Shown: positions 2,983-63,838 of the stretch, piece after piece
Layout of the letters: the number at the start of each line of letters is the position of its first letter
How positions within the stretch are numbered: the first letter of the stretch is position 1
From: a virus
Taxonomy: Duplodnaviria > Heunggongvirae > Uroviricota > Caudoviricetes
IMG/VR virus record: IMGVR_UViG_2563366977_000001
Location: 15,651 to 79,650 of that record
Direction: 5' to 3' (one strand)
DNA length: 64,000 nt
Made by a program: the position numbers and the translations under genes
The notes under the pieces: model-generated
Databases searched by the model: none
What the model was told of the DNA's origin: nothing
The model's input: only the letters and a program-made list of their open reading frames with translations

Positions 2983-3113
2983 GGTTAAACCCTAAATTCG
3001 GGCGCGGCGTGAAGATTCTTTTGACGAGGTGACAATACTCACTTTGTTATTTAGTCAATAGCATTAGAAAAATAATTTTCGTTAACAATCTTGTGTTAGT
3101 ATGGTTTAATCTT

Positions 3114-3126
3114 AATTTTCTAACAT
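3114..3126 (+). promoter_or_regulatory. Recurrent operator-like motif AATTTTCTAACAT, 16 bp upstream of ORF 3142
   Basis: One instance of a motif found at 12 or more promoter-proximal sites in the window; variant copy in opposite orientation at about 3062-3074. Confidence 0.45.
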
Positions 3127-4616: not shown

Positions 4617-4686
4617 CCTCTTCAGATTTTTTGTTGGTGTGATATGTGTACCAATTTGTAACCATTTATGGGCTTAAATGGTGTGT

Positions 4687-11182: not shown

Positions 11183-11220
11183 ACTGTGTTAGAAAATGAA
11201 ACTAAATTATCTAACACAGT
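11183..11220. promoter_or_regulatory. Operator-like inverted repeat ACTGTGTTAGA-N16-TCTAACACAGT upstream of rdgC
   Basis: Perfect 11-bp inverted repeat carrying the recurrent TGTTAGA / TCTAACA motif. Confidence 0.45.
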
Positions 11221-17110: not shown

Positions 17111-17335
17111 CAAAGCCCACCTTAAGGTGGGCTTCGCCAGAAATTATTTTCTGGTATTCAGAACGCCATTACCGGACTTTGCCTTGACCAAGTATCACAA
17201 CAGGCTTGACCTGTTATGATAGCTGGTTGCGGGATGTCTGAATTTCTTCAGTCTGCTGCATCCTCGAAGGTTTGGTTCAACATGTACCATTCCTTCACCG
17301 TCATAATAGTGAACTATTCACGTCCTTACAAACAC

Positions 17336-18541: not shown

Positions 18542-18863
18542 TTTCTATCTCCGGTGCCGAGCCAGCGTAATCGCGAATCTTGTTTCTTAGCCATGCTGCG
18601 TCAGGAAGAGTTAACGTTGTCCCTACCGGCATTTCTTCCATTTCTGACTCATGGCCCACCAGCACGCGAAATACCCAGCGCAAATCAGCGTTGCCATAGG
18701 CGCGATAGGCCGCCAGGTCTGAGCGATAAACCTCATCAATTTTTATCGTGTACTGGAAATTATCGGAGTGATACTCCGATACCCGCTTGATCATCTCCTG
18801 ATGGAATAGTGCGCGCAGCACATCGTCTTCAATGCATCGATCGTCGAGCCTGCTGTAACTCAT
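18534..18863 (-). CDS. Hypothetical protein co-transcribed with SWIM protein
   Basis: 109-aa ORF overlapping SWIM gene start by 8 nt. Confidence 0.4.
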   Translation of the reverse strand: MSYSRLDDRCIEDDVLRALFHQEMIKRVSEYHSDNFQYTIKIDEVYRSDLAAYRAYGNADLRWVFRVLVGHESEMEEMPVGTTLTLPDAAWLRNKIRDYAGSAPEIENA

Positions 18864-18955
18864 AACAGTTCCTCACAGTCATAACCTGGGGGGAACTGTA
18901 TGCAGGGTGTGAAATGCGAGAAAGCAGCGTCACCTTGCCTGGTGACGCTGTGAAA

Positions 18956-20904: not shown

Positions 20905-21534
20905 ATGAAGGATGGTTTTGTGAAGTTAAGGGTTTTGGGAGCAGTGCTCGCGGTTATATTGGGGGGAGTTTCTCTTAATGCTGCCTATGCAGGCGCGTTA
21001 CCTGCAAAGTATGAGGCTGGGCTGAAGGTGTTGCGAAACGCCAAAACAAACTATACGCCTGATGAAGTTTCAAACTATTGCCAGAAAGAAAATATCCCGC
21101 TGAAACCTGTAGAGCCATTCTTTAAAAGCAACATTGAGTTCTGTGTATTTGCATATGCAGCAGATGAAACAGGCAAAGCCATACAAAAGACAGGGTATTC
21201 CACCAAAGACACAATGTCGGTGTTAAGTAACGGCGTGTTGCAGTTTGAGCTTTATCGTCAGCAAGGAATGGGAGATCTATTGCAGCCTTTGTATATGCTG
21301 GCTTGGGTGCCTGAAGGGCAGCAGTTTCTTATCCGGAAAGGGATGCTTCGGCAAAGTGATGTGGCAGGATTCAATAACATGATGGAACTTGAACGAGCCG
21401 CGAAGCAAAAACAAGCACCTAAGCAACCTACAGCGGAATGCATTCGTAGTGAGATCCAAAAGATATTAAGTGAGCAGCCTTACATTGATCGTGGGGTAGC
21501 CGAAGTCGCTGCAAAAATGAAATGTACTAATTAA
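20905..21534 (+). CDS. Secreted protein (signal peptide), AT-rich cargo
   Basis: Trimmed to ATG 20905; N-terminal signal LRVLGAVLAVILGGVSLNAAYA. Confidence 0.5.
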   Translation: MKDGFVKLRVLGAVLAVILGGVSLNAAYAGALPAKYEAGLKVLRNAKTNYTPDEVSNYCQKENIPLKPVEPFFKSNIEFCVFAYAADETGKAIQKTGYSTKDTMSVLSNGVLQFELYRQQGMGDLLQPLYMLAWVPEGQQFLIRKGMLRQSDVAGFNNMMELERAAKQKQAPKQPTAECIRSEIQKILSEQPYIDRGVAEVAAKMKCTN

Positions 21535-24455: not shown

Positions 24456-24560
24456 TTGGCAGCCTCCTTTTGCTAATTTAAGGAGCTACCGCGTGAGGTC
24501 TCAATCTCAATGGCGGTAGCACTGGCTGGGTTGAGACTACCGGCGCAAAAGGGAACCGGC
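24456..24560 (-). ncRNA. Candidate c4-like antisense RNA region
   Basis: Noncoding leader before icd with complementary stems (GCTACCGC / GCGGTAGC, GGTCTCAA / TTGAGAC); by position only. Confidence 0.3.
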
Positions 24561-25256
24561 CTGCCTTTCGGCAGCCCAGCCAGCACTACCATTGATCTTG
24601 GAGCTATACGCTACGTATGGCTGTGCGATGGCATGACACAAAAAAAGACGCTTTCGGCGTCTGTGTCGCCTTTTGCATTATCCGGGGTCTCAATCCCGGC
24701 ACCCGTTTTTCTAAGGTGCCGTAGAAATATACCTCACGATAATGCCAGGGCGCAACAGTCAGTATTTTATGCTTTGGCGGATTTCTTCCGGGCTTGCTTG
24801 CAGGCGTAGGCCATTGCTTTAGCTTTCACTTCATCCAGCTTTCCGGTGATCACTTCTTTTCCGAGAGTGACAAACCAGTCATAGCAACCGCCAGTGATGT
24901 TCTGGATTTGAAAGTTGAGGTAGCGAACGGTCATTTTGACACCCCCAGCGCGAGTAAAGAATGCAGATTATCGCGTGAGTGGCGGACAACGAGTGATGGG
25001 AAAGGACAGTAGCTGTTCATAGTGTAGTGACTCCTTGCTTTCGGAGCCGCCATCGACTGTTCCACGGTCTGGTGGCGGCGCAATAAAGGTTGGAACACCG
25101 TGAGTCAACGGGGGCTTTTCAGCCACCTATATTGCACCGCCATTGGTATGGCGGCGGCAATCATACGAAAAACCAAACGGTTTGTCTCAAAAAGTTGACC
25201 GGTGTACCAATCGGTTGTGAATGTACAACGGCGAATCTCACAATTCAACTTAAAAT

Positions 25257-25268
25257 GTTAGAAAATTA
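25257..25268 (-). promoter_or_regulatory. Operator-like motif (TGTTAGAAAATT) at head of the immI leader
   Basis: Recurrent motif about 800 bp upstream of icd. Confidence 0.4.
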
Positions 25269-25841
25269 ATTCATTAATTCAGTCACCATCTGATACAACG
25301 TCATTTCATCAGCATTGTGCCGCCTGAAATCTGCTTTGCCGCCTATTTTTCCATCAGCATGAACAGGAACCAACCAGGGGTATTGCTCGCGGATCTCTGC
25401 TGGCGCTGCGTGTTGATGGTGCCATTTACACAAAGGGAGGACGTATTTATGCGCGTTCTCTGCTGTTCTCCCAAAGATGTGGTGCAGGGATACCACAGGG
25501 CTATGCTGTCCGTGCATATGGCAGGCAATGCAGGGGAGAGCACCGATGGCAGTTTGTATCCGGCGCTCATCTGCTGTGAGTGTTCTGCCTTTCAGGCCGC
25601 GTGACGCGCGCGTTTTTTTGACAGGAGCAGAAGCGGCCTTCTCTTTTCTTCGCTGTTCATATTGCTTCGCTTTTTCAATTTTCTTTTGCCGATATTCAGG
25701 CGATGCGGCTTTTTCTCGCGCACGCTGCTGCTGGCGTTGAGCTTGCTGAAGACGCTTTGCCCTTTGTTCCTCCCGCCATTTCGGATCAGCCAGTTTTTGC
25801 AGGGCTTTTTGTGTCTGTTTCTCCCAATAGCTTTGCTTCAT
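25266..25841 (-). CDS. ref: Ref-like HNH endonuclease (recombination enhancement function)
   Basis: Trimmed to ATG 25841; K/R/Q-rich N-terminal region then Cys/His-rich HNH-like C-terminus (CIACHMHGQH ... CKWHH). Confidence 0.65.
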   Translation of the reverse strand: MKQSYWEKQTQKALQKLADPKWREEQRAKRLQQAQRQQQRAREKAASPEYRQKKIEKAKQYEQRRKEKAASAPVKKTRASRGLKGRTLTADERRIQTAIGALPCIACHMHGQHSPVVSLHHIFGRTAENAHKYVLPLCKWHHQHAAPAEIREQYPWLVPVHADGKIGGKADFRRHNADEMTLYQMVTELMN

Positions 25842-25886: not shown

Positions 25887-25918
25887 TGTTAGAAAATCAA
25901 AATTGATTTTCTAACACA
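25887..25918. promoter_or_regulatory. Palindromic operator pair GTGTTAGAAAATCAA / TTGATTTTCTAACAC between ref and DUF4406 gene
   Basis: Perfect inverted repeat of the recurrent motif in a divergent promoter region. Confidence 0.5.
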
Positions 25919-29110: not shown

Positions 29111-29142
29111 GTGTTAGAATATTGATTTTAATTTTCTAACAT
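29111..29142. promoter_or_regulatory. Operator pair GTGTTAGAATATTGA / AATTTTCTAACAT upstream of ORF 29184
   Basis: Inverted pair of the recurrent motif about 40 bp before start codon. Confidence 0.5.
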
Positions 29143-36698: not shown

Positions 36699-36714
36699 CT
36701 GTATGAATAAACAG
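36699..36714. promoter_or_regulatory. LexA (SOS) box CTGTATGAATAAACAG upstream of humD
   Basis: Exact CTGT-N8-ACAG consensus 20 bp before humD start. Confidence 0.7.
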
Positions 36715-41303: not shown

Positions 41304-41317
41304 TGTTAGAAAATTAA
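41304..41317 (-). promoter_or_regulatory. Operator-like motif TGTTAGAAAATTAA just after recombinase stop
   Basis: Recurrent motif instance. Confidence 0.4.
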
Positions 41318-41318
41318 T

Positions 41319-42347
41319 TTATGAATCCATCAGGCGACTATTTGCACCAACGGATGCCCCGCTACGGCGCAAATATCGCATAAGTGTTTCGGGCTTTTTC
41401 CATGTGCCTTCCTGCATGATCTCGACCATTGACACCTGTTTCTCAGCCATATCAATTGCCGCACCAACACGCGCACTATGGCCTGTCCACGTCCGGTATC
41501 TTCCCTTGTTCGGCGTGGCATCTCGTTTGTTCAGCAACCCCCAGGCATCGCTGAATATTTTCTCCATTGCAGGTGCAGTAAGGGGCGTTGTCGTGATTCT
41601 GGCCTTATTACTGCGGTGTATTGGCGGGAATAGCACCGCGTCCGGATGTTCTCGAAGTCCGGACACCTCCAGCCAGTCGTTCAGTACGGCGGTAGTGTAA
41701 CGAGAAAGCACCTTATCAAGTCCGGCGGCGGTCGTGATGGTCTTCGTGTGTGAAATATGCAGCGTTACAGTGTCACCTGTTTGGTCCAGATCTCCGACGC
41801 GGATGCGCGAGATTTCTGACATACGCATCAGGGTATTGTATGCCACGAAGAGAAACGCCCGATTGCGCAGGTCCACCAGCCGCTCGGAACGGGAAAGCAA
41901 CACGTCGAGCAATTTCAGATCATCCCACCGCAACGGTATAGCCTGGCCTGTTCGCTCACCTTTTTCCGTTGCCGCTTCGCGCCGGATGCGCCGCATGGCC
42001 AGAGACACACTTTTATCGTCCGACAGCGGCGGGAGGCCACATTGCGAAAGCAGCATGTTAAGCATGGCATAGTGCTTATCAATGGTGGTCGAGGCCAGAT
42101 CGGCCTCATGCAACTGGAGAAGATACTCGCGGGCCATTTCCGGCGTAATCGGGAACCAGGGGTGCTGGCGCGAATTACACCACCGCGCCCAGGAATGAAA
42201 CACCAGACGGAGATCTCGAAGCGTATTTGGGGCATAAGCTCCCTGGTCGTTCATGAACTGCATAAAGTTTTTTGCAGCTTCCTGGTATTCGGTGCCTATA
42301 TCGCGCAGAAAACCACCAGAACCGCCGGAGATAACTAGTTCACCCAT
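41319..42347 (-). CDS. cre: Cre-family tyrosine site-specific recombinase (Dre-like)
   Basis: 342 aa; colinear with P1 Cre (SWARWC, LNML, RN.AFL..AYNTL, TKT, GHSARVGAA, C-terminal Tyr in RYLRR). Confidence 0.9.
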   Translation of the reverse strand: MGELVISGGSGGFLRDIGTEYQEAAKNFMQFMNDQGAYAPNTLRDLRLVFHSWARWCNSRQHPWFPITPEMAREYLLQLHEADLASTTIDKHYAMLNMLLSQCGLPPLSDDKSVSLAMRRIRREAATEKGERTGQAIPLRWDDLKLLDVLLSRSERLVDLRNRAFLFVAYNTLMRMSEISRIRVGDLDQTGDTVTLHISHTKTITTAAGLDKVLSRYTTAVLNDWLEVSGLREHPDAVLFPPIHRSNKARITTTPLTAPAMEKIFSDAWGLLNKRDATPNKGRYRTWTGHSARVGAAIDMAEKQVSMVEIMQEGTWKKPETLMRYLRRSGASVGANSRLMDS

Positions 42348-42499: not shown

Positions 42500-42531
42500 T
42501 AACTTTAAATAATGCCAATTATTTAAAGTTA
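42500..42531. other. lox-type recombination site (rox-like)
   Basis: TAACTTTAAATAATGCCAATTATTTAAAGTTA perfect palindrome; readable as 13-8-13 (arm CTAACTTTAAATA vs loxP ATAACTTCGTATA, 9/13); 150 bp upstream of recombinase. Confidence 0.8.
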
Positions 42532-42612
42532 GAAATCAGGACTTTTTTCCCAAAAAAAACACCGACCAGATCACTTCGCAAATCCGTCAGCCATGCGGTA
42601 GCTGTTCCTGGT

Positions 42613-42714
42613 TACATTTTCTAATAGGAACAATCAAAAAAAAGCGGTTTTATCCTTTACTCACCTTGTTATTCAGCATAAATTTGTCACAGGACTTTTA
42701 TGTTAGAAAACTAA
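42613..42714 (+). promoter_or_regulatory. Two operator-like motifs (ATTTTCTAATA at about 42616, TGTTAGAAAAC at about 42701) upstream of ORF 42729
   Basis: Recurrent motif in both orientations in the leader of the gene at the c1 position. Confidence 0.45.
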
Positions 42715-42728
42715 ATCGAGTAGGAATA

Positions 42729-43766
42729 ATGAGTAAGAAGTCGATCGAGAATGAGTACAAACGGTTCCTGCAAACCGCTGAACGGTGGAAAGAGCTGGTG
42801 GTCGCAAACTCTGTTTTCCATGATACCAGTTATGTTGGCGAGGAATTTCGCCATGTTGCATTAACACATGATCCGGCTGTATTAGAAGAAGCTGAAAAAT
42901 GCATAGCCGAATGGAAAGCCTTTGTTGATCTGTGTCGCAAGGATGATGACAAAGCCTCAAACATTGTTGAGTCGGTTTATTTACCGATCCCATTCATTGT
43001 TGAGGATACTAATCAGAGTACGCATATCGTTATGCAAAGCGCAACCACAACGAGAACATTTACGCGCGAAGACCTGCTGAAAAAATACGATAAAACTATA
43101 AAGAAAAGCATGAAAAACAGGATATTTTCACAGGTTGTCGGTGCGCTTGAAGAAGAACGCAGATTCTTCGCCGCTGAACGTGAGGGCGAGGTATACCGCG
43201 CAAGAAAAGAAGGTTATACCGATGTGGTGATTACCACCAATATCGAGGGCAACAATGGACTTTCACGCTTCCGAGTGGGTGCGCACGGTGCGCTGATCTT
43301 TGCAAGAAAAGCAAACACAGAGATTCCCGTTGTTAACAACGTTGGTGAGCGCCGTACCCTTACCATTTACACTGGCATTAAACCGCTTCCGTGCGGACTT
43401 CTCGGCGAATTTGACCTTTATCGGGTTCGTGATCTGGAAAAGCAGCAGCCAAGCTATGTCGTGAAGTCATATATCCTGAGAAACATTGATATCCGCAATC
43501 AGAGTTTAAAAAACAAATCAGATAAAATGCTGGCCGAAGCCGATCCAGCCATACACCAGATCGTTAGCCGGAAAATTCAAGAGGCTAAAGATGCAATGGC
43601 AAGGCTGGATAAAATGGACCTGGAACTACTGGAAGTTATGATTGCCTCCGGCGATGACCTGACAGGCATCCGCCTTACTGAAGCCAGGAAAAAATACGGT
43701 AAAAGCGTTGAAGAACGCTATGGGTACACATTCACACAAACGATGTACGCGGCAAAACTCTGGTAA
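42729..43766 (+). CDS. Hypothetical protein at the position P1 uses for c1 repressor
   Basis: Trimmed to ATG 42729 (AGGAA RBS); no similarity to P1 C1 that I can recognise. Confidence 0.4.
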   Translation: MSKKSIENEYKRFLQTAERWKELVVANSVFHDTSYVGEEFRHVALTHDPAVLEEAEKCIAEWKAFVDLCRKDDDKASNIVESVYLPIPFIVEDTNQSTHIVMQSATTTRTFTREDLLKKYDKTIKKSMKNRIFSQVVGALEEERRFFAAEREGEVYRARKEGYTDVVITTNIEGNNGLSRFRVGAHGALIFARKANTEIPVVNNVGERRTLTIYTGIKPLPCGLLGEFDLYRVRDLEKQQPSYVVKSYILRNIDIRNQSLKNKSDKMLAEADPAIHQIVSRKIQEAKDAMARLDKMDLELLEVMIASGDDLTGIRLTEARKKYGKSVEERYGYTFTQTMYAAKLW

Positions 43767-43781
43767 TCGCAAACCACCCAC

Positions 43782-43805
43782 AAGCCCCGAATCGCCGGGG
43801 CTTTT
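43782..43805. terminator. Bidirectional hairpin (GCCCCGAATCGCCGGGGC) between convergent genes
   Basis: Stem-loop followed by TTTTAAAT. Confidence 0.5.
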
Positions 43806-45312
43806 AAATGTCAATATCAGGAATATCCACTTCTGCCAACACCTGATCGCGGAATGTTGCGAGTTCTGCGCCAATGTCTTCATTAGCAGGCACGTAATCC
43901 ACCAGCATAGTGAAGCAGTAGGTATCCCATCTGTCCGGCGACTTGATGTTTAACTTCTGCCGCATGTGCTCCTTGCGCATCATCGCTACCTTCCCTTCTT
44001 CGTTAAGCATATACGGGATTTTTGATGCCTGATCTGCGGTTTTGGGGTCACTATCGATACGCATACGCCCTGATTTAATGGCATCCCCTGCCATAATATT
44101 GGCGTAAGCACGCTGATTGACAAAGCGTTCTCTGTCTCTTAGCGCAAACATAGGCTTACCCCAACGGATGCGAACGGGATTAGCACCACGGCGGACAAGC
44201 TGCGCACACGTATCTGAACCAAAGCCATCAGCATCCACAGCAATGGTGATGTTCGGGTATTTATCAGGAGTGCATTCGTTATAGATAAAGTCGGCAAAAG
44301 CCAACGGGTCCATAGTGCCTGGCATCTCCAGTATCTTAAAGTTCACAACGCGTCGTTTCTCACGATAACCGGATACTTTGCATATATTGAGCACCGATTT
44401 GTCGCGACCATTACCGACGTCAGCGGTCGCTACCCAGCCCCAATCTTTCTCCAGCAACACTTTACGCCGTGCGGCGCGGTCGCACTCATCACGACCAAGC
44501 AAATACCCGTTAATTGCACGCGGGAACTGGCCCAGCACCTTAACCATGTACTCCAGCGAATCCCTGCCGCCGTACTCCAGCAATTTCTCACGAATAAAGC
44601 TCGGTTCAACGAATGGAGATTCTTCAGAGTTAAGGACTATTGCCGTCCAGACTCCTTCCGGATTGCCTTCTGCCTTTGCCCTTGAATGGTGGGATTCATA
44701 AAAGTAACCGCTTGGACGCGTAGGCTGGGAAAGCATGAGCATACGGTTATCTTTCTGCGTTAACGCCCCCGTCATGACGTTAATCGCCTTATCGGATATG
44801 CCCGATGCTTCATCAAGGATTAGCAGTAAATGCTCCGCGTGCTCCCCCGCCAGTGCCTCTTCGTTACCGAGTCGATAACCTTTACAGAGCACTTCCCATA
44901 TCCCTTTACGGGAACGCTCATAAAACATGGTGTCAGACAGGACAAAATAGGTCTGTAACCAGCCGTGGCGCTTAACAGCATTCGCCCAAAACTGTTTCAC
45001 GTATTTGAATACGCCTGTTTTTACCTGGCCTATTTTGTTCGCAACAATAATGACGCGGGCGTCGGGGAACAGGATCATAAAAATTAGTAGCAACATCGCG
45101 GTAAGGGATGACTTACCCGTTCCGTGTCCGGACGTAACGGTCGTCCTGCTCCCCGTCTCCTGCACTGACTGAATGATCTGCTGCTGCTGATGGGAGGGGA
45201 ACATCCCAAAAATATCGACAACCGCCTGGGTAAAGTTGTATCGATACCTGATAACCATATCGCGCCAACGTGGATCACTGGTGACGCACTTAATCTTACG
45301 ACCACCAGCCAT
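43804..45312 (-). CDS. pacB: Terminase large subunit PacB
   Basis: 502 aa; Walker A TSGHGTGKS; directly downstream of pacA with 1-nt overlap. Confidence 0.85.
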   Translation of the reverse strand: MAGGRKIKCVTSDPRWRDMVIRYRYNFTQAVVDIFGMFPSHQQQQIIQSVQETGSRTTVTSGHGTGKSSLTAMLLLIFMILFPDARVIIVANKIGQVKTGVFKYVKQFWANAVKRHGWLQTYFVLSDTMFYERSRKGIWEVLCKGYRLGNEEALAGEHAEHLLLILDEASGISDKAINVMTGALTQKDNRMLMLSQPTRPSGYFYESHHSRAKAEGNPEGVWTAIVLNSEESPFVEPSFIREKLLEYGGRDSLEYMVKVLGQFPRAINGYLLGRDECDRAARRKVLLEKDWGWVATADVGNGRDKSVLNICKVSGYREKRRVVNFKILEMPGTMDPLAFADFIYNECTPDKYPNITIAVDADGFGSDTCAQLVRRGANPVRIRWGKPMFALRDRERFVNQRAYANIMAGDAIKSGRMRIDSDPKTADQASKIPYMLNEEGKVAMMRKEHMRQKLNIKSPDRWDTYCFTMLVDYVPANEDIGAELATFRDQVLAEVDIPDIDI

Positions 45313-46676
45313 TAGTCATCCTCCGGCTGGTCTATCACAATCTCGTCATCTACAGCATCAAAACCGGTATCCCCCGCGTCATAATCACCGTAGATATCAG
45401 CCGTGGCGGAAGGGTCTATATTCAGGTCTTCATCATTGGCCTCAAATTCACCGGCTTTACGTTCTCCGTTCCGGTCGTAATCCCCCATCCCAAGCCTATC
45501 AACGATTTTCGCTACTTCAGCCCGGCGTTGTGCAAGCCATTGTGGGAGTCCAGCTTGTTGCTCGGCAAACTGCTTCGCCTCTTTATCCAGTTGCTCATCA
45601 TCAACATCGTTAACGTCAGAAACCGGAGGCTCCAGAAGTGAGATCGCTTTTGCCGCTCGTGCCGCCAGGATAGCTGGGACACTGACGCCCTGCCGCTCGA
45701 TATATTCAGCTACGCCTATATCGTCCAGCTCCTCGCGCTCACGCATACGTATAGCGGCGGCGATAACCCTGGCGGCGCGTGCGTCAGCGCCAATGCGATA
45801 CTCAATCTCCTTGCCACGCTGCTCGGCCTGCAGGCGGGCAATCGCCAGTTTTTCTCTGGCCTCAGCCTCCCTGAATGCCTGCTGACGCGCGCCCTGCGCA
45901 AGTTTTTCATCCCCCTGGCGTAGCTTCTGCTCGGTCTGGTAGATGGCTGCCAACCTACTGATAAAGTCATTCATGTAGTAGGCCGCATCGCTTATTAGGC
46001 CGAGAAGACGCTGCCCTGGGTGCATCCCCTCTGGCTGTGTATCGCCGAGGGCGTCAATCTCTTCCTGTAGTCGCTCCGCTTCCTGGTCAACGATGGCCTG
46101 ATACTGAATTGCTCGTTCCTGCGCCATCTGTATCGCAAGTCGTAAATGTTCAGTCGCGCCGTTCTTCATCATCTCACGGGCGACGTTGGTGGCAGGCAAA
46201 GTGGCGCTTTGAGCTGATGAGTCAGGGATCATTTGCAATGATCCCTTGTTTCGTTGGGCTTTTTCGCTGCTTTTAGGGATCATTTCTCCCATTTCATCAC
46301 AAAATGATCCCTTCACATCCTTGTGTATCCTGTTGTTATTACTTGGTTTTTCTTTGTGATCCGCATTTTGTTTTTGCGGCATGGCGCGGAACTGTCCACC
46401 AGCTAACGATTTGTCAGTTTTTGTAAATTCTGTGCTTTTATCAGCCTTTTTTTGCTCTTTTTTTGAGCCGGTGGCGCTGCTTTTTGCGCGCTGTTTTGTA
46501 CTTTTCCCGGCAGCCTTAGCTTTCGCCTTAACCTCATTTTTTTTCATATTGAGATGCTTTCTGGCGGTGTTAAAGCTGAGGTCATGCTGCTCGCAATATT
46601 CTTTTATGGTGATCCCGGTTTCTTCTCTTAACTCCAGGAACTTAGCTCGATGCGCCTCCCAGTTAATTAACGTCAT
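45312..46676 (-). CDS. pacA: Terminase small subunit PacA (contains pac site)
   Basis: 454 aa; N-terminal HTH-like segment, K-rich linker, acidic C-terminus; GATC-rich pac repeats inside 5' part. Confidence 0.7.
   Translation of the reverse strand: MTLINWEAHRAKFLELREETGITIKEYCEQHDLSFNTARKHLNMKKNEVKAKAKAAGKSTKQRAKSSATGSKKEQKKADKSTEFTKTDKSLAGGQFRAMPQKQNADHKEKPSNNNRIHKDVKGSFCDEMGEMIPKSSEKAQRNKGSLQMIPDSSAQSATLPATNVAREMMKNGATEHLRLAIQMAQERAIQYQAIVDQEAERLQEEIDALGDTQPEGMHPGQRLLGLISDAAYYMNDFISRLAAIYQTEQKLRQGDEKLAQGARQQAFREAEAREKLAIARLQAEQRGKEIEYRIGADARAARVIAAAIRMREREELDDIGVAEYIERQGVSVPAILAARAAKAISLLEPPVSDVNDVDDEQLDKEAKQFAEQQAGLPQWLAQRRAEVAKIVDRLGMGDYDRNGERKAGEFEANDEDLNIDPSATADIYGDYDAGDTGFDAVDDEIVIDQPEDD
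46225..46373. other. Candidate pac packaging site: clustered GATC-containing octamers
   Basis: GGGATCAT / ATGATCCC at about 46225, 46238, 46276, 46304 plus GTGATCCG at 46366, inside the pacA 5' region. Confidence 0.55.
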
Positions 46677-47065
46677 AGGGAAGCCTCACGTTTTTTCACA
46701 GCGGCGTTCCATAGCTGGTTAGTCATCGCCACCAACTGACGCTGCTCCTTTCGTAATTGAGCTTCTATCTTTCGGTTGGTGTTTTTCACCAACAGCCGAC
46801 CGAATTCAGGAGTGCGCCCGCGCACCTTGAACTGGTATCCATTCAGGCCATGTAACCAATATTTCCGGGGGTATACGCGGTCGTCTATTTCGCAAATGGC
46901 ACGACTGGAACGAACAAAAAAACGTATGATGTTATTTACGTTTACGCGCGACACATGAAGGTGAGGATATTGTGCTTTTGCACGGCTGGTGATTTCGGTG
47001 ACCGTCAGATAGCAGTCAGCCCTGATCATGATATCCGCTATTTCGGCGCTACTGATTTGCTCCAT
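46673..47065 (-). CDS. Putative late promoter activator (P1 lpa / gene 10 position)
   Basis: 130-aa ORF immediately upstream of pacA, overlapping its start; called by synteny only. Confidence 0.4.
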   Translation of the reverse strand: MEQISSAEIADIMIRADCYLTVTEITSRAKAQYPHLHVSRVNVNNIIRFFVRSSRAICEIDDRVYPRKYWLHGLNGYQFKVRGRTPEFGRLLVKNTNRKIEAQLRKEQRQLVAMTNQLWNAAVKKREASL

Positions 47066-47140: not shown

Positions 47141-47172
47141 TGTATTAGAAAATTAATATTAATTTACTAACG
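47141..47172. promoter_or_regulatory. Operator pair TATTAGAAAATTAA / TTAATTTACTAACG upstream of lpa-position gene
   Basis: Inverted pair of recurrent motif about 75 bp before the start codon. Confidence 0.5.
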
Positions 47173-48582: not shown

Positions 48583-48658
48583 TGGTGGCCCCTACCGGAC
48601 TTGAACCGGTGACCGTGCGATTATGAGTCGCCCGCTCTAACCACTGAGCTAAAGGGCC
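48583..48658 (-). tRNA. tRNA with CAU anticodon, most similar to tRNA-Ile2 (lysidine) rather than tRNA-Met
   Basis: Hand-folded cloverleaf: acceptor GGCCCTT/AGGGGCC, anticodon arm GGCGA-CTCATAA-TCGC, T-loop GGTTCAAGTCC, 3' CCA. Confidence 0.75.
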
Positions 48659-49087
48659 AGATTACTGTTAATTACGCTTACGCTTTTTGCCAGAACCGCG
48701 TAAGGCTTTTGCCGCTTGCTCTACCCCGTATGCAACCACCAGCAGAAACAATAATGTCCACTCCGGGTTTTTATCGGCAAACGCCCAAAAATCCATCACT
48801 TGCAGCCACCTTTTAAGACAAAACGCCATTGCTGTTAGGTTGCGGTGCCGGGTGCCTCCCGGTGACGTTAACCAGTTAACAATTAACGCCGGATCACTTA
48901 TGGATTCTCGTTACGCCAGTAAAAAGACCACCTTTACTGTTTTAACTGTTCCGCGTGCGCTTAGCCGCATTCACCGCAATGGTAAGAGCATTTGGCTGAC
49001 TGGGCGGCGATGACGCCTGTACGCATTTGGTGATCCGGTTCTGCTTCCGGCATTCGCTTAATTAGCCAAATACTCTTAACGTTGCGA

Positions 49088-49174
49088 TGGCGGAGAGTAA
49101 TGGAATCGAACCATCATCGCTTGCGCGACGGGACGGTTTTCAAGACCGCTTGAGCACCATGCTCCCTACTCTCC
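49088..49174 (-). tRNA. tRNA-Ser (UGA anticodon), long variable arm
   Basis: Acceptor GGAGAGT/ACTCTCC, discriminator G, anticodon loop CTTGAAA, 17-nt variable arm, T-loop TTCGATT, CCA. Confidence 0.6.
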
Positions 49175-49415
49175 AGTGATTGTGGTGGTCGGTACTGATC
49201 TCCGACTGCGCCTCTTTTTTTCATAGCCCATAAGGCCGGTCAGTGCGCTTGATGACTGAGGCATCGATATTTACTACGCCGCCTCGTTGCCATAGGGCGG
49301 ACTTGCGCGCCAGCAACGCGCATTCACCACAACGGAAAGAGCATTTATGGCTCGCATCGCGGGAAAAAGCCCACGGTAGAGAGTCGAACTCTACAAATGC
49401 TCTTACCTGTTGTGT

Positions 49416-49491
49416 TGGTGCCGGTTAACGGGATCGAACCGCTGACCATTCGCTTACAAAGCGACTGCTCTACCAACTGAGCTAAACCGGC
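49416..49491 (-). tRNA. tRNA-Thr (UGU anticodon)
   Basis: Acceptor GCCGGTT/AACCGGC, D-arm AGCTCAGTTGGTAGAGC, anticodon loop TTTGTAA, T-loop GGTTCGATCC, CCA. Confidence 0.8.
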
Positions 49492-49495
49492 AATT

Positions 49496-49582
49496 TGGTG
49501 GGGAGTGATGGAGTCGAACCACCCGAGTCGCAATGACAGTAGATTTACAGTCTACACCGCTACCTCTACGGACTAACTCCCC
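49496..49582 (-). tRNA. tRNA-Tyr (GUA anticodon)
   Basis: Acceptor GGGGAGT/ACTCCCC, anticodon arm GTAGA-CTGTAAA-TCTAC, long variable arm, CCA. Confidence 0.8.
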
Positions 49583-49587
49583 TAAAT

Positions 49588-49662
49588 TGGCGATGGTGGG
49601 TGGATTCGAACCACCGACCAGTTGGTTAACAGCCAACTGCTCTACCGCTGAGCTACACCATC
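49588..49662 (-). tRNA. tRNA-Asn (GUU anticodon)
   Basis: Acceptor GATGGTG/CACCATC, anticodon arm GTTGG-CTGTTAA-CCAAC, T-loop GGTTCGAATCC, CCA. Confidence 0.85.
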
Positions 49663-50148: not shown

Positions 50149-50975
50149 AAATATCCCACTCGCGGTATTGCCACTTAGGCGTATGGTCAACCTGGCAACT
50201 CGGTGTCCTCAACGGGGAAGGAATAACCCCGCCATACTTACCGCCGCGCCTGTCGCGGTTATCGCTACGTATCAACATAAAAGCCGACTGCCTGAGCAAG
50301 ATTCACTTTCAAAGGCCCGCAGAAAGGAATCCATAGTCGGCTTTTATCTTGAAGCGGCTCTCTCTCCGCCCGTCACCGTCCTATCCCGGTTGTCGCGTTT
50401 GCCACGCCAGCCGTAACGAGGTTTAAAGTCTTTTCACGTTTTCATCACTCGACTGCCGTCTATGGCTGTTCGTTGCAGCGGGGGTGCCTCCCCCTGGGGA
50501 TATCCCCGGCCTTACCCCCATTCTTTCAAAACACAATGCAAGGCCACATCCGCATAGGTGCATTACCGCAACGTTAAGGAGACTCAGAGTCAGCAAAATA
50601 AGAGGAAAACCCAACTCTGCGCCTCCTTAACGTTGAGGATGTTCACTGATGATGACCCGATGCAGCCTGGCCCACTTAACATACTCACTGCCAGATCATC
50701 ATCAATGAACACCTTAAAAAGACCTTCCGTGGCTCAAGTCACTGTCGTTTACTCCGTAAAATGCTCTCGCTGAAACCACTTTACGCACTAAACCTGCCGG
50801 GCATGTATTTGCACGGTGCCGGAGCTTTCCCTTACCTTAAAATTTACTTTCTAACACTTAAATTTGTTTGATGCTGGTGGGGAAAGACAATGAAGTGACT
50901 ATCAAACCCGCAAGCGACATGGGAAGCTCCCCACCAGCACGAAAAATTCTATGTTAAGTTAACCCTATAATCAAT

Positions 50976-51008
50976 ATGTTAGAAAGACAATTTTAATTTT
51001 CTAACACA
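50976..51008. promoter_or_regulatory. Operator pair ATGTTAGAAAGACAA / AATTTTCTAACACA abutting stop of ORF 51009..52217; single copy at about 50841-50857
   Basis: Inverted pair of recurrent motif heading a 1.3-kb noncoding stretch upstream of the tRNA cluster. Confidence 0.45.
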
Positions 51009-52235: not shown

Positions 52236-52254
52236 AATTAGTTTTCTAACACAT
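52236..52254. promoter_or_regulatory. Operator-like motif (AATTAGTTTTCTAACACAT) upstream of ORF 51009..52217
   Basis: Recurrent motif followed by GGAAGGG RBS and ATG. Confidence 0.45.
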
Positions 52255-52849: not shown

Positions 52850-53293
52850 TTAATCAAGATTTACATATTCCGTGATAGCTTTTATGGCTTCATCGGCACT
52901 GCGCGCCTCAAAGCAGTAATAGCCTGCTTCCGTGAGGCGGGTCATCCAGACGAGCTGTTCGGGAGTCAGACGGTTTCTCCCGTGCTTCATCTCAATGCGC
53001 ATTCCGTGATACCCACCACGAGCAAGGTCAATAGAAAGGTCCGGATAGCCCTTCTTCTGACCTTCTGCCACCATCTTAATGGCTGTCCTTTTGCCTCTCA
53101 GGCCGCCGTTCGGTGTTGAGTGTGTGTGCTCATACACGTATCGCATGTTGCGATACAGCCAATCCAGAACGCGAACCTGTTCGTAATGTTCGTAATTCCG
53201 TTTTAATAAGTCAGGATTTCTTTCTAACTCTCTCAGTGCAGCAGCGTGCGGGGATATTTCAGAATACGCACTATGATGCCTGCGTCTTCGCAT
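52850..53293 (-). CDS. VRR-NUC-like (PD-(D/E)xK) nuclease domain protein
   Basis: Trimmed to ATG 53293; GYPDLSIDL ... EMKHGRNRLTPEQ pattern; operator motif AAATTTCTAACACAAA abuts start. Confidence 0.5.
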   Translation of the reverse strand: MRRRRHHSAYSEISPHAAALRELERNPDLLKRNYEHYEQVRVLDWLYRNMRYVYEHTHSTPNGGLRGKRTAIKMVAEGQKKGYPDLSIDLARGGYHGMRIEMKHGRNRLTPEQLVWMTRLTEAGYYCFEARSADEAIKAITEYVNLD

Positions 53294-53482
53294 TAAATTT
53301 CTAACACAAACTTCCTGAAATAATGAACACGATAATAACAAGAGCGTTAGTTTTATCAAAACCGAGGGAAATACTACTAAAGAGATAGGCGGATGCAACA
53401 GGTCGGACTTGTTTTTAGAGTAAATGGTGATGCGGGTCAACAAGCCGGGTAAATTGTATGTCATTTACCCAACTTGTTATTT

Positions 53483-53743
53483 TTAATGGTTTATTTTATC
53501 CGGTTCGTTAATTTCCGTAACCGACTTGTCGATAGCAATCATCCATCCTTCATAGGATAAATCATCAACAAGCCCCACCAGCTTATCGTCAGTGTGCGGA
53601 AAATAAATCCATCCCCATTTCGAAGGGTTTTCTATATGCCGCAGGGTAAATACCCGCTTATAACGGTGGTATTCAAGGGCGTATCCCTTCCCTTGTGAGT
53701 ACGCTTTTAAGTCGTCGATCGTAAACCTACGATTCTTTCGCAT
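53483..53743 (-). CDS. Hypothetical protein
   Basis: 86-aa ORF. Confidence 0.3.
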   Translation of the reverse strand: MRKNRRFTIDDLKAYSQGKGYALEYHRYKRVFTLRHIENPSKWGWIYFPHTDDKLVGLVDDLSYEGWMIAIDKSVTEINEPDKINH

Positions 53744-53745
53744 GG

Positions 53746-54180
53746 CTACCCCACGATTCGATATTTCTCTATAGACTCGTCGTAACTTGTGTATACGTAT
53801 GGCTCTGTATCATCAGCATAAGGCGCGACTTCCAGAGCATGAACGGGATTGTATACCGCGTCATTTTCCAGGCGATCGCTCGAATACAGATGCCCGGCTA
53901 AAACCGTAAGCGCCGGGCGACTCATTTTGTAGATCTCTGCCACATCACTATCTACAACTTGTCCAAATGATATGTCGCCGCGCTCCAGCAATAACGTTTT
54001 AAGCGCAGGCCACCACGGCCCATAAAGGTGATAAAGCTGTGGATCTCTTTTCAGCCTTTCCACCATGCCATCCAGATATGCATCCAGAAACGCCTCTTCA
54101 CTCCTGCCATTGAGCGCCTGCGGCAAAATGTCCTCAAGGTAGGATTCCGTCGGTTTTACAGTGTCAATTAATGTCGTCAT
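53746..54180 (-). CDS. Hypothetical protein immediately downstream of darB
   Basis: 144-aa ORF. Confidence 0.35.
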   Translation of the reverse strand: MTTLIDTVKPTESYLEDILPQALNGRSEEAFLDAYLDGMVERLKRDPQLYHLYGPWWPALKTLLLERGDISFGQVVDSDVAEIYKMSRPALTVLAGHLYSSDRLENDAVYNPVHALEVAPYADDTEPYVYTSYDESIEKYRIVG

Positions 54181-63476: not shown

Positions 63477-63804
63477 AGTTACGGCCTCACTAACAGGTTT
63501 AACAACCTGCTACCCGCTGTCAAACAGGTGGCAGGACGTGACAGGGTTGACAGACTGGCGTTAGTGAAACCAGCAGGCCGAAGCCTCCCCATCACGCCCC
63601 ACCATAATTCGGGCGTAACGCGGTTTACGGACACAAAAATACCGCAATATCGGAAATCTGCGGTTGTCCGCACTAACATTCAGGCTGTCAAACCTGGTCG
63701 CAGAATTTGCTACGACGGCATGAATATAAGCCTGAACATTAGAAAGATCAACAGAATTTTTATCAGATGCTGTTTTTTTGTGACGATGTAAATCATACAT
63801 TCTT

Positions 63805-63838
63805 GATTAGAAACATCAATTTAATTTTCTAACATACA
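63805..63838. promoter_or_regulatory. Operator pair TTGATTAGAAACATCAA / AATTTTCTAACATA upstream of second immI copy
   Basis: Inverted pair of recurrent motif. Confidence 0.45.

Follow-up and report, generated by a model that had tools for sequence, protein, structure and literature searches.

A divergent D6-type member of the P1 C1 repressor family, its putative 15-bp operators and its predicted Tus-like fold

P1-like phage-plasmids commonly carry resistance genes in Enterobacteriaceae. The C1 repressor of P1, a monomer according to the older biochemical literature, has the c4 operon among its targets. In P1 the gene order is pacA, pacB and then, on the opposite strand, c1, coi, imcB and imcA, followed by lox (P1 record). 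The operator recognised by C1 has an asymmetric consensus, ATTGCTCTAATAAATTT (PMC8546580), and control by C1 has been described for lpa, repL and c1/coi (PMC8546580; P1 record) as well as for ref, dmt and kilA (PMC4713147), while for one operator of the c1 region the annotation gives control of cra and cre as a possibility (P1 record).

A second form of this repressor is that of phage D6, a subtype of C1 that has been recognised since 2004. Its description is said to go back to Sauer & McDermott in 2004 and to Gilcrease & Casjens in 2018. The D6 gene carries the label 'c1, phage repressor protein; similar to the C1 repressor of phage P1' in AY753669 and 'prophage repressor, similar to P1 gene C1' in MF356679.

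Here we analyse the corresponding locus in a 64,000-nucleotide stretch of a tailed-phage record (the window, to which positions refer unless another genome is named), which is a P1-related phage-plasmid of D6 type. A preliminary description of this DNA had taken the gene in the c1 slot for an unrelated one, and our result is mostly corrective: the slot holds a C1 of the known D6 type and not a foreign gene. A map of putative operators and a predicted Tus-like fold of the repressor are the only parts of this work that may be new, and both are features of the family, not of this locus in particular.

The c1 locus and its homology to P1 C1

From left to right the locus comprises a Cre-family recombinase (-), rox, c1 (+), pacB (-), pacA (-) and lpa (-). 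The recombinase is a Dre-type tyrosine recombinase (41319-42347, minus strand) with 94% amino acid identity to D6 Dre, and rox, a lox-type site of 32 bp (42500-42531), is an exact match to the annotated rox of D6. The ORF of c1 (42729-43766, plus strand) is intact and encodes 345 amino acids followed by a stop codon; it had been reported as 346 residues long, a length that counts the stop, although the ORF itself is real. An AGGA ribosome-binding site (42722-42725) lies three bases 5' of its ATG. On the other side we find pacB, the terminase large subunit (43804-45312, minus strand; 92% identity to D6 PacB), and the ORFs of pacA (45312-46676, minus strand) and lpa (46673-47065, minus strand). 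The placement given in the preliminary description, between pacB and the lox-type site and opposite to pacAB, holds, and c1 is convergent with pacAB in the same way as c1 of P1. Between the stops of c1 and pacB there is a GC-rich, terminator-like hairpin (AAGCCCCG / CGGGGCUU; 43782-43803, plus strand), which abuts the pacB stop and has a fold energy of -17.7 kcal/mol (z -2.95).

The C1 protein of D6 (AAV84948 / ASR76322) is of equal length, 345 aa, and shares 81% amino acid identity with the window protein over 345/345 residues, gap-free, together with the position of its gene between rox and pacB and the same C-terminal extension. Comparison of the two genes indicates purifying selection, with a dN/dS of 0.10 overall, 0.11 in the core and 0.07 in the C-terminal extension. 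Since C1 is 19% diverged at the amino acid level while the neighbouring Dre and PacB remain 94% and 92% identical, the window gene can be regarded as an allele distinct from that of D6. In PLSDB this allele (at least 98%) is present in 7 plasmids and the D6 type (~80%) in about 130. Six E. coli / E. marmotae plasmids of 90-94 kb share 99-99.6% identity with the 1.6-kb c1 region and a seventh shares 98.3%; for phage D6 and ~130 D6-like plasmids the figure is ~80%. Near-identical copies in public plasmids are labelled 'phage repressor protein' by PGAP; the complete plasmid NZ_CP099353.1 encodes a C1 99.7% identical to that of the window. The window gene is of an already known type. Three relatives whose C1 is 44-50% identical (L007-L009) likewise have these genes arranged as recombinase (-), c1 (+), pacB (-), pacA (-), lpa (-).

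The preliminary description could not relate the ORF to P1 C1 and suggested that an unrelated protein had displaced c1, acting either as a replacement immunity repressor or as some other regulator. The failure is explained by the behaviour of the common searches: tblastn with the full protein against 50,697 phage records matched only D6 and did not retrieve P1, to which the eye does not lead either, and a Pfam-A scan with three queries, the ORF, P1 C1 and the C-terminal extension, gave nothing useful, the copy used having neither PF27008 nor a model for either protein. That the P1 operator is absent from the window also speaks for an unrelated protein. The homology to P1 C1 is, however, significant by four independent routes and colinear from the N terminus. 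BLASTP of the 345-aa protein against P1 C1 gives an E value of 2e-7 with ~21% identity, residues 7-237 being colinear with 8-242. PHROG 1678 is matched end to end by both proteins (E 1.7e-159 for the window protein and 2.6e-140 for P1 C1). NCBIfam NF041318, phage_rep_C1, is matched over residues 9-244 with E 2.5e-5 and 23.9 bits, a score so far under the equivalog cut-off of 500 bits that the sequence does not guarantee functional equivalence to P1 C1. Finally, the profile search that had been proposed as a check reached the P1 C1 cluster: a profile of nine D6-type sequences, run against 1.84 billion representative proteins, matched 106 clusters, among them (E 9.8e-13) P0069, which represents the cluster of P1 C1 (E 3e-99 against P1 C1 by phmmer). 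Together with the existing annotation of D6 C1 as similar to P1 C1, these homology results already refute the displacement of c1 by an unrelated protein, to which we leave practically no credit.

Relatives of the window protein also carry the precomputed Pfam assignment PF27008, Phage_P7_repressor_C1, and within the family short-form members (250-290 aa), to which P1 C1 belongs, can be told from long-form ones (~344-403 aa) such as that of the window. The protein shares with the P1/P7 C1 family the homologous core of about 235 aa, and its gene has the family's place in immC, flanked on one side by pacB, with which it converges, and on the other by the lox-type site; the dispersed asymmetric sites, single and paired, that go with such a repressor are present as well, but they are built on a different 15-bp motif, to which C1 would bind. 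A C1 homologue elsewhere on the replicon, with this ORF not binding DNA, had been named as the finding that would speak against a repressor in this slot; tblastn with P1 C1 retrieved a single homologue, the c1 gene itself, from each of three sequences, namely the window, the complete D6 genome and NZ_CP099353.1. Judged from its sequence, the window protein belongs to the known family of C1 repressors and is an orthologue of P1 C1 that has diverged very far.

A repeated 15-bp motif as the candidate operator

The 17-bp operator consensus of P1 has 0 matches in the 64 kb at up to 3 mismatches. De novo counting of approximate 15-mers singled out TGTTAGAAAATTAAT, and the same k-mer counting yielded no other comparably repeated motif in the window. 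Allowing at most 2 mismatches, TGTTAGAAAATTAAT occurs at 16 sites against 0.28 expected, a number reached in 0 of 100 shuffles, and a weight matrix finds about 20 sites of this type. The sites are non-palindromic and almost invariant at positions 1-14. At least 14 of the top 20 are non-coding by the ORF calls of this analysis, in a window that is 86% coding, and ~17 are so by the D6 annotation. Homologous positions in D6 carry corresponding sites, and NZ_CP099353.1 has 17 of them, while its late structural genes (24.8-61.8 kb), a stretch of 37 kb, contain none.

At five places two sites abut in inverted orientation and form 30-bp palindromes. These bivalent operator-like sites are located upstream of the hrdC (rdgC)-methylase (dmt) operon (11187-11216; also in D6), between ref and a divergent early operon (25887-25916; also in D6), between ppp and pdcB (29112-29141; also in D6), upstream of lpa (47143-47172, a near-palindrome found in D6 at 4632, with Olpa of P1 in the same place) and just past the 3' end of pmgS, upstream of a minus-strand tRNA cluster (50977-51006, from the motif search). 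The architecture differs from that of the bivalent Oc1ab of P1, in which two 17-mers overlap by 6 bp to give 28 bp in total, whereas the D6-type pairs consist of two abutting 15-mers joined at their TTAAT ends.

Single operator-like sites with the perfect consensus occur directly after the dre stop, upstream of the leftward orf117-dut operon (41304-41318, plus strand; also in D6, at 89948, and in L007, L008 and L009), and upstream of the second isrK/C4 RNA-icd-antirepressor module (25256-25270, plus strand, by motif search), whose C4 RNA is at 24509-24596. The first such module, c4-a1b1/C4 RNA-icd-antirepressor, with its C4 RNA at 63524-63609, is preceded by a site at 63820-63834 (minus strand; D6 at 21262). 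Further copies are situated between the major capsid gene and the divergent orf52 (3111-3125, minus strand, also in D6, accompanied by a weaker copy at 3062-3076 on the plus strand), near the pmgS 3' end (50842-50856, minus strand), upstream of pmgS (52237-52251, minus strand; also in D6) and near the 5' end of the pmgM homologue (53292-53306, minus strand, by motif search). The gene repL lies beyond the window end here, and in D6 and NZ_CP099353.1 it is preceded by the motif.

The preliminary description had noticed two operator-like motifs in the c1 leader, and both are confirmed, one strong and one weak. The proximal site TGTTAGAAAACTAAA (42701-42715, plus strand) ends 13 nt 5' of the c1 ATG and would be autoregulatory; it is identical in D6, at 199-213, and conserved in L007 and L008. 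The distal site TATTAGAAAATGTAA (42612-42626, minus strand) is a weak match to the weight matrix, with 4 mismatches both in the window and in D6, and its position explains why the region had been described as starting at 42613. The two sites are inverted relative to each other and 89 bp apart, and the same spacing is found in L007 and L008, whose C1 is 49-50% identical to that of the window. In an alignment of five sequences that includes L009 (C1 44% identical) the distal site has an invariant TTTTCTAA core, and the TGTTAGAAAA core is conserved, along with the leader geometry, across L007-L009. Between the two sites we can point to a candidate c1 promoter on the plus strand (42656-42684), composed of a -35 hexamer TTTACT (42656-42661), a 17-nt spacer and a -10 hexamer TAAATT (42679-42684); it matches the consensus in 8/12 positions and both hexamers fall within conserved blocks of the leader alignment. 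Such a promoter would place the proximal site at about +10 to +24 and have the distal one upstream of it. Scans for sigma-70 promoters around the sites gave only weak matches of 8-9/12 in AT-rich DNA, and we do not rely on them.

The map of these sites parallels the C1 regulon of P1, and this is the main argument for TGTTAGAAAATTAAT being the D6-type C1 operator. From the distribution and conservation of the motif we infer that it is the site bound by the window C1. It might be argued instead that the protein is a C1-homologous repressor with a different true operator and that TGTTAGAAAATTAAT serves a host protein or a second regulator encoded by the plasmid. The motif is indeed AT-rich and resembles a promoter, and further DNA-binding proteins are predicted on the replicon (HTH regulators, a 'DNA-binding protein' and Rha-family proteins). 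We nevertheless consider such an assignment improbable. The sites stand where P1 has its C1 operators (lpa, ref, dmt, repL, c4 and c1), they recur in the c1 leader at a spacing conserved across relatives, they exist in monovalent and bivalent forms as in P1, and no second motif of comparable repetition emerged from the k-mer counting. A TTAGA core is, moreover, common to TGTTAGAAAATTAAT and the reverse complement of the P1 operator, which we mention as an observation and not as a test. C1 binding to TGTTAGAAAATTAAT stays the preferred assignment. The operator consensus of D6 looks the same as that of the window, so a change of immunity specificity between the two alleles is not indicated. In the searchable literature, which left out key D6 papers, we did not find a consensus for the D6-type operator, and it may be published there. 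Given an explicit consensus of the operator and a map of the regulon, immunity groups and inducibility within the D6 group would become predictable from sequence.

Predicted fold and C-terminal extension

An AlphaFold2 model of the protein, obtained with a 98-sequence alignment, has a pLDDT of 95.4 and a pTM of 0.83. The model consists of an alpha/beta core (residues 1-232), in which two strands are very long (99-112 and 155-171), a long helical hairpin (233-307) and three short helices (316-342). Residues R41, P88, R157, R159 and G187 are conserved. The Pfam scan brought no HTH family for the window protein at E values up to 10, and the structural neighbours of the predicted model are non-HTH proteins. 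When the model was compared with the PDB by Foldseek, only Tus was significant (E 1.4e-7, probability 1.0), which places the predicted model within the Tus fold.

At the sequence level the picture is different: a PDB sequence search with the protein and with the 98-sequence profile gave low-complexity noise only and no Tus, hhalign of the family profile against Tus returned a probability of 1.9%, which is not significant, and the Tus family, PF05472, was not matched by the window protein in the Pfam scan. In view of this missing sequence signal we claim for the core a predicted resemblance to the Tus fold, not membership in the Tus family, and common ancestry is not established by it. Tus is a monomer that sits on an asymmetric site and reads it by inter-domain beta-strands. 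The predicted fold would explain in structural terms why the operators of C1 are, as has long been known, asymmetric and why C1 is reported to bind as a monomer, and it would tie a transcription repressor to the fold of a replication terminator. We found no paper naming both Tus and the C1 repressor in the searchable literature, without the key D6 papers.

The same resemblance allows one to ask whether the protein is mainly a polar roadblock on DNA or a factor of replication and maintenance, arresting forks or controlling plasmid or lytic replication, with the C1/Tus-like fold serving that purpose. Tus is indeed the sole structural neighbour, and replication genes are flanked by sites, repL being preceded by the motif in D6 and NZ_CP099353.1. 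Such a role appears highly improbable to us, given that the P1 homologue is a proven transcriptional repressor, that the sites are concentrated at 5' regulatory regions of many unrelated early operons and not around origins or termini, and that sequence similarity to Tus was not found. Repression of transcription remains the probable function of the protein. One may go further and suggest that the whole family of P1-like C1 proteins is built on the Tus fold and reads its operators through a beta-strand cleft instead of an HTH, the D6 type having a helical C-terminal module in place of Coi and Lxc and a re-specified 15-bp operator, TGTTAGAAAATTAAT; this combined proposal is tentative, and we would give it slightly less than even chances.

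The helical C-terminal extension of the window protein covers residues ~233-345 (~110 aa); in P1 C1 its place is taken by a short tail rich in Lys. It is kept in all long-form members, down to 44% identity. Relatives of the extension outside the family were not found in Pfam, and tblastn of 50,697 phage records with it matched only D6. We also considered the extension as a fused Lxc or Coi and rejected this, there being no similarity. Our guess is that it contributes oligomerisation on paired sites or a built-in corepressor-like role in a system that has no Lxc.

Proposed mode of action and comparison with P1, D6 and Tus

Taking together the homology to C1, the conserved position and the presence of the motif at C1-type targets, we conclude that the window protein is probably an immunity repressor that occupies the c1 slot and has operators in its own leader. 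More precisely, we propose that the product of the ORF is a divergent orthologue of P1 C1 and serves a D6-like phage-plasmid, itself related to P1, as its primary prophage (immunity) repressor, a reading to which we assign a probability of roughly 0.8. The earlier suggestion of a replacement immunity repressor is right with respect to the repressor function, which is well supported, if indirectly, and wrong as far as a non-homologous replacement was meant.

In the mechanism that we propose, C1 would bind the asymmetric 15-bp operator TGTTAGAAAATTAAT in place of the 17-mer of P1. The ~20 copies over the genome, single or as abutting inverted pairs forming the 30-bp palindromes, would act ahead of early and lytic functions, namely lpa, ref, hrdC-dmt, both c4-icd-antirepressor modules and pdcB, with repL added in D6 and in the near-identical plasmid; the late structural block is without operator copies. 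With operators placed before early and lytic genes, binding of C1 would hold the prophage in the plasmid state. The two inverted leader sites, 89 bp apart, are consistent with autoregulation of c1, and looping as in P1 would be possible. A Tus-like two-domain core with long beta-strands may account for recognition of a non-palindromic site without a helix-turn-helix, and the extension of residues 233-345 may, as a matter of speculation, supply oligomerisation or corepressor-like stabilisation.

As to how repression would be relieved, the partners known from P1 do not seem to be available. For Coi, ImcA, ImcB and Lxc there was no tblastn match with E < 0.1 in the window, in D6 or in NZ_CP099353.1, and the distance from rox to the c1 start codon is only ~200 bp, which leaves no room for a coi-imc leader. 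With Coi, Lxc and ImcAB absent, repression would have to be lifted by the two antirepressor modules that are under c4 control. Where P1 has lxc, after ulx, there is an ORF of 86 aa; we rejected it as a divergent Lxc, as it has no similarity and belongs to a different PHROG. LexA boxes, considered as an induction input, number 2 against 0.68 expected, which is not significant, and none is near c1.

P1 has many dispersed asymmetric operators, monovalent and bivalent, under a single master repressor, and the D6 type would be alike in this, with C1 acting on its own 15-bp motif. One difference from P1 lies in the partners, for P1 has the antirepressor Coi, encoded upstream of c1, the corepressor Lxc, ImcA and ImcB, and the D6 type is without all four, so that the D6 group runs its C1 switch without Coi or Lxc and with a conserved C-terminal extension. 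The likeness to D6 itself is far closer, since there the proximal leader site is identical and the genome-wide motif is found at homologous places. The likeness to E. coli Tus (PDB 1ECR, 4XR0) is one of predicted fold and not of function, as Tus arrests replication forks at Ter sites and C1 represses transcription.

Divergence of the repressor and a sigma-70-like promoter within rox

According to our comparison with D6, the repressor C1 (42729-43766) shares only 81% identity with its D6 counterpart, while the flanking products, the recombinase Dre and PacB, share 94% and 92%, respectively. Among the three, the repressor is the fastest evolving one, though its dN/dS is still 0.10. Of the plasmids in PLSDB, only 7 have the C1 allele of the window, as opposed to about 130 with the D6 allele. 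The Dre-like recombinase is encoded at 41319-42347, and its lox-type site, rox (32 bp, 42500-42531), matches D6 rox exactly. Inside rox we found a strong sigma-70-like promoter (TTGGCA and TATAAT with 16 nt between them, 11/12 match), which runs from 42518 to 42491 and is directed at the recombinase gene.

Two immI-like modules and the slot of lxc

The window carries two separate immI-like modules, at 24509-24719 (-) and 63524-63729 (-), and in both (2/2) a C4 antisense RNA is followed by icd and an antirepressor gene. Before the C4 RNA comes isrK in one module and the c4-a1b1 target element in the other. A consensus operator-like site, TGTTAGAAAATTAAT, lies upstream of the C4 RNA in each case (25256-25270 and 63820-63834). 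These two modules are the likely route by which repression is relieved without Coi, the antirepressor of P1.

In P1 the gene of the corepressor Lxc occupies the slot after ulx, whereas in the window an 86-aa ORF (53483-53743, minus strand) stands there, directly 3' of the ulx homologue (53767-54180). A search for Lxc similarity in this ORF gave none (PHROG 6844 versus 2160; BLASTP E 19), and the ORF could be either an unrelated occupant of the slot or an analogue.

Palindromes, repeats and RNA genes

Two LexA-box-like palindromes (CTGT-N8-ACAG) occur in the window, a non-significant excess over the 0.68 expected; the one at 18853-18868 lies upstream of two tiny ORFs (orf76 and orf77 in the D6 annotation), and the other, at 36699-36714, adjoins the hot/humD homologues. 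A GC-rich inverted repeat at 50858-50960, with Chi-like arms (GCTGGTGG and CCACCAGC), is flanked by operator-like sites at 50842-50856 and 50977-51006, and the corresponding stretch of D6 bears no annotation. At the related locus L009 the most repeated words are 13-mers containing Chi. An sroH sRNA match was given by Rfam at 17112-17297 (minus strand, 113 bits). Five tRNA genes, for Met, Ser, Thr, Tyr and Asn, are clustered on the minus strand at 48583-49662, as ARAGORN and Rfam agree, whereas the GenBank record of D6 lists only three (Ser, Thr and Asn), on the plus strand.
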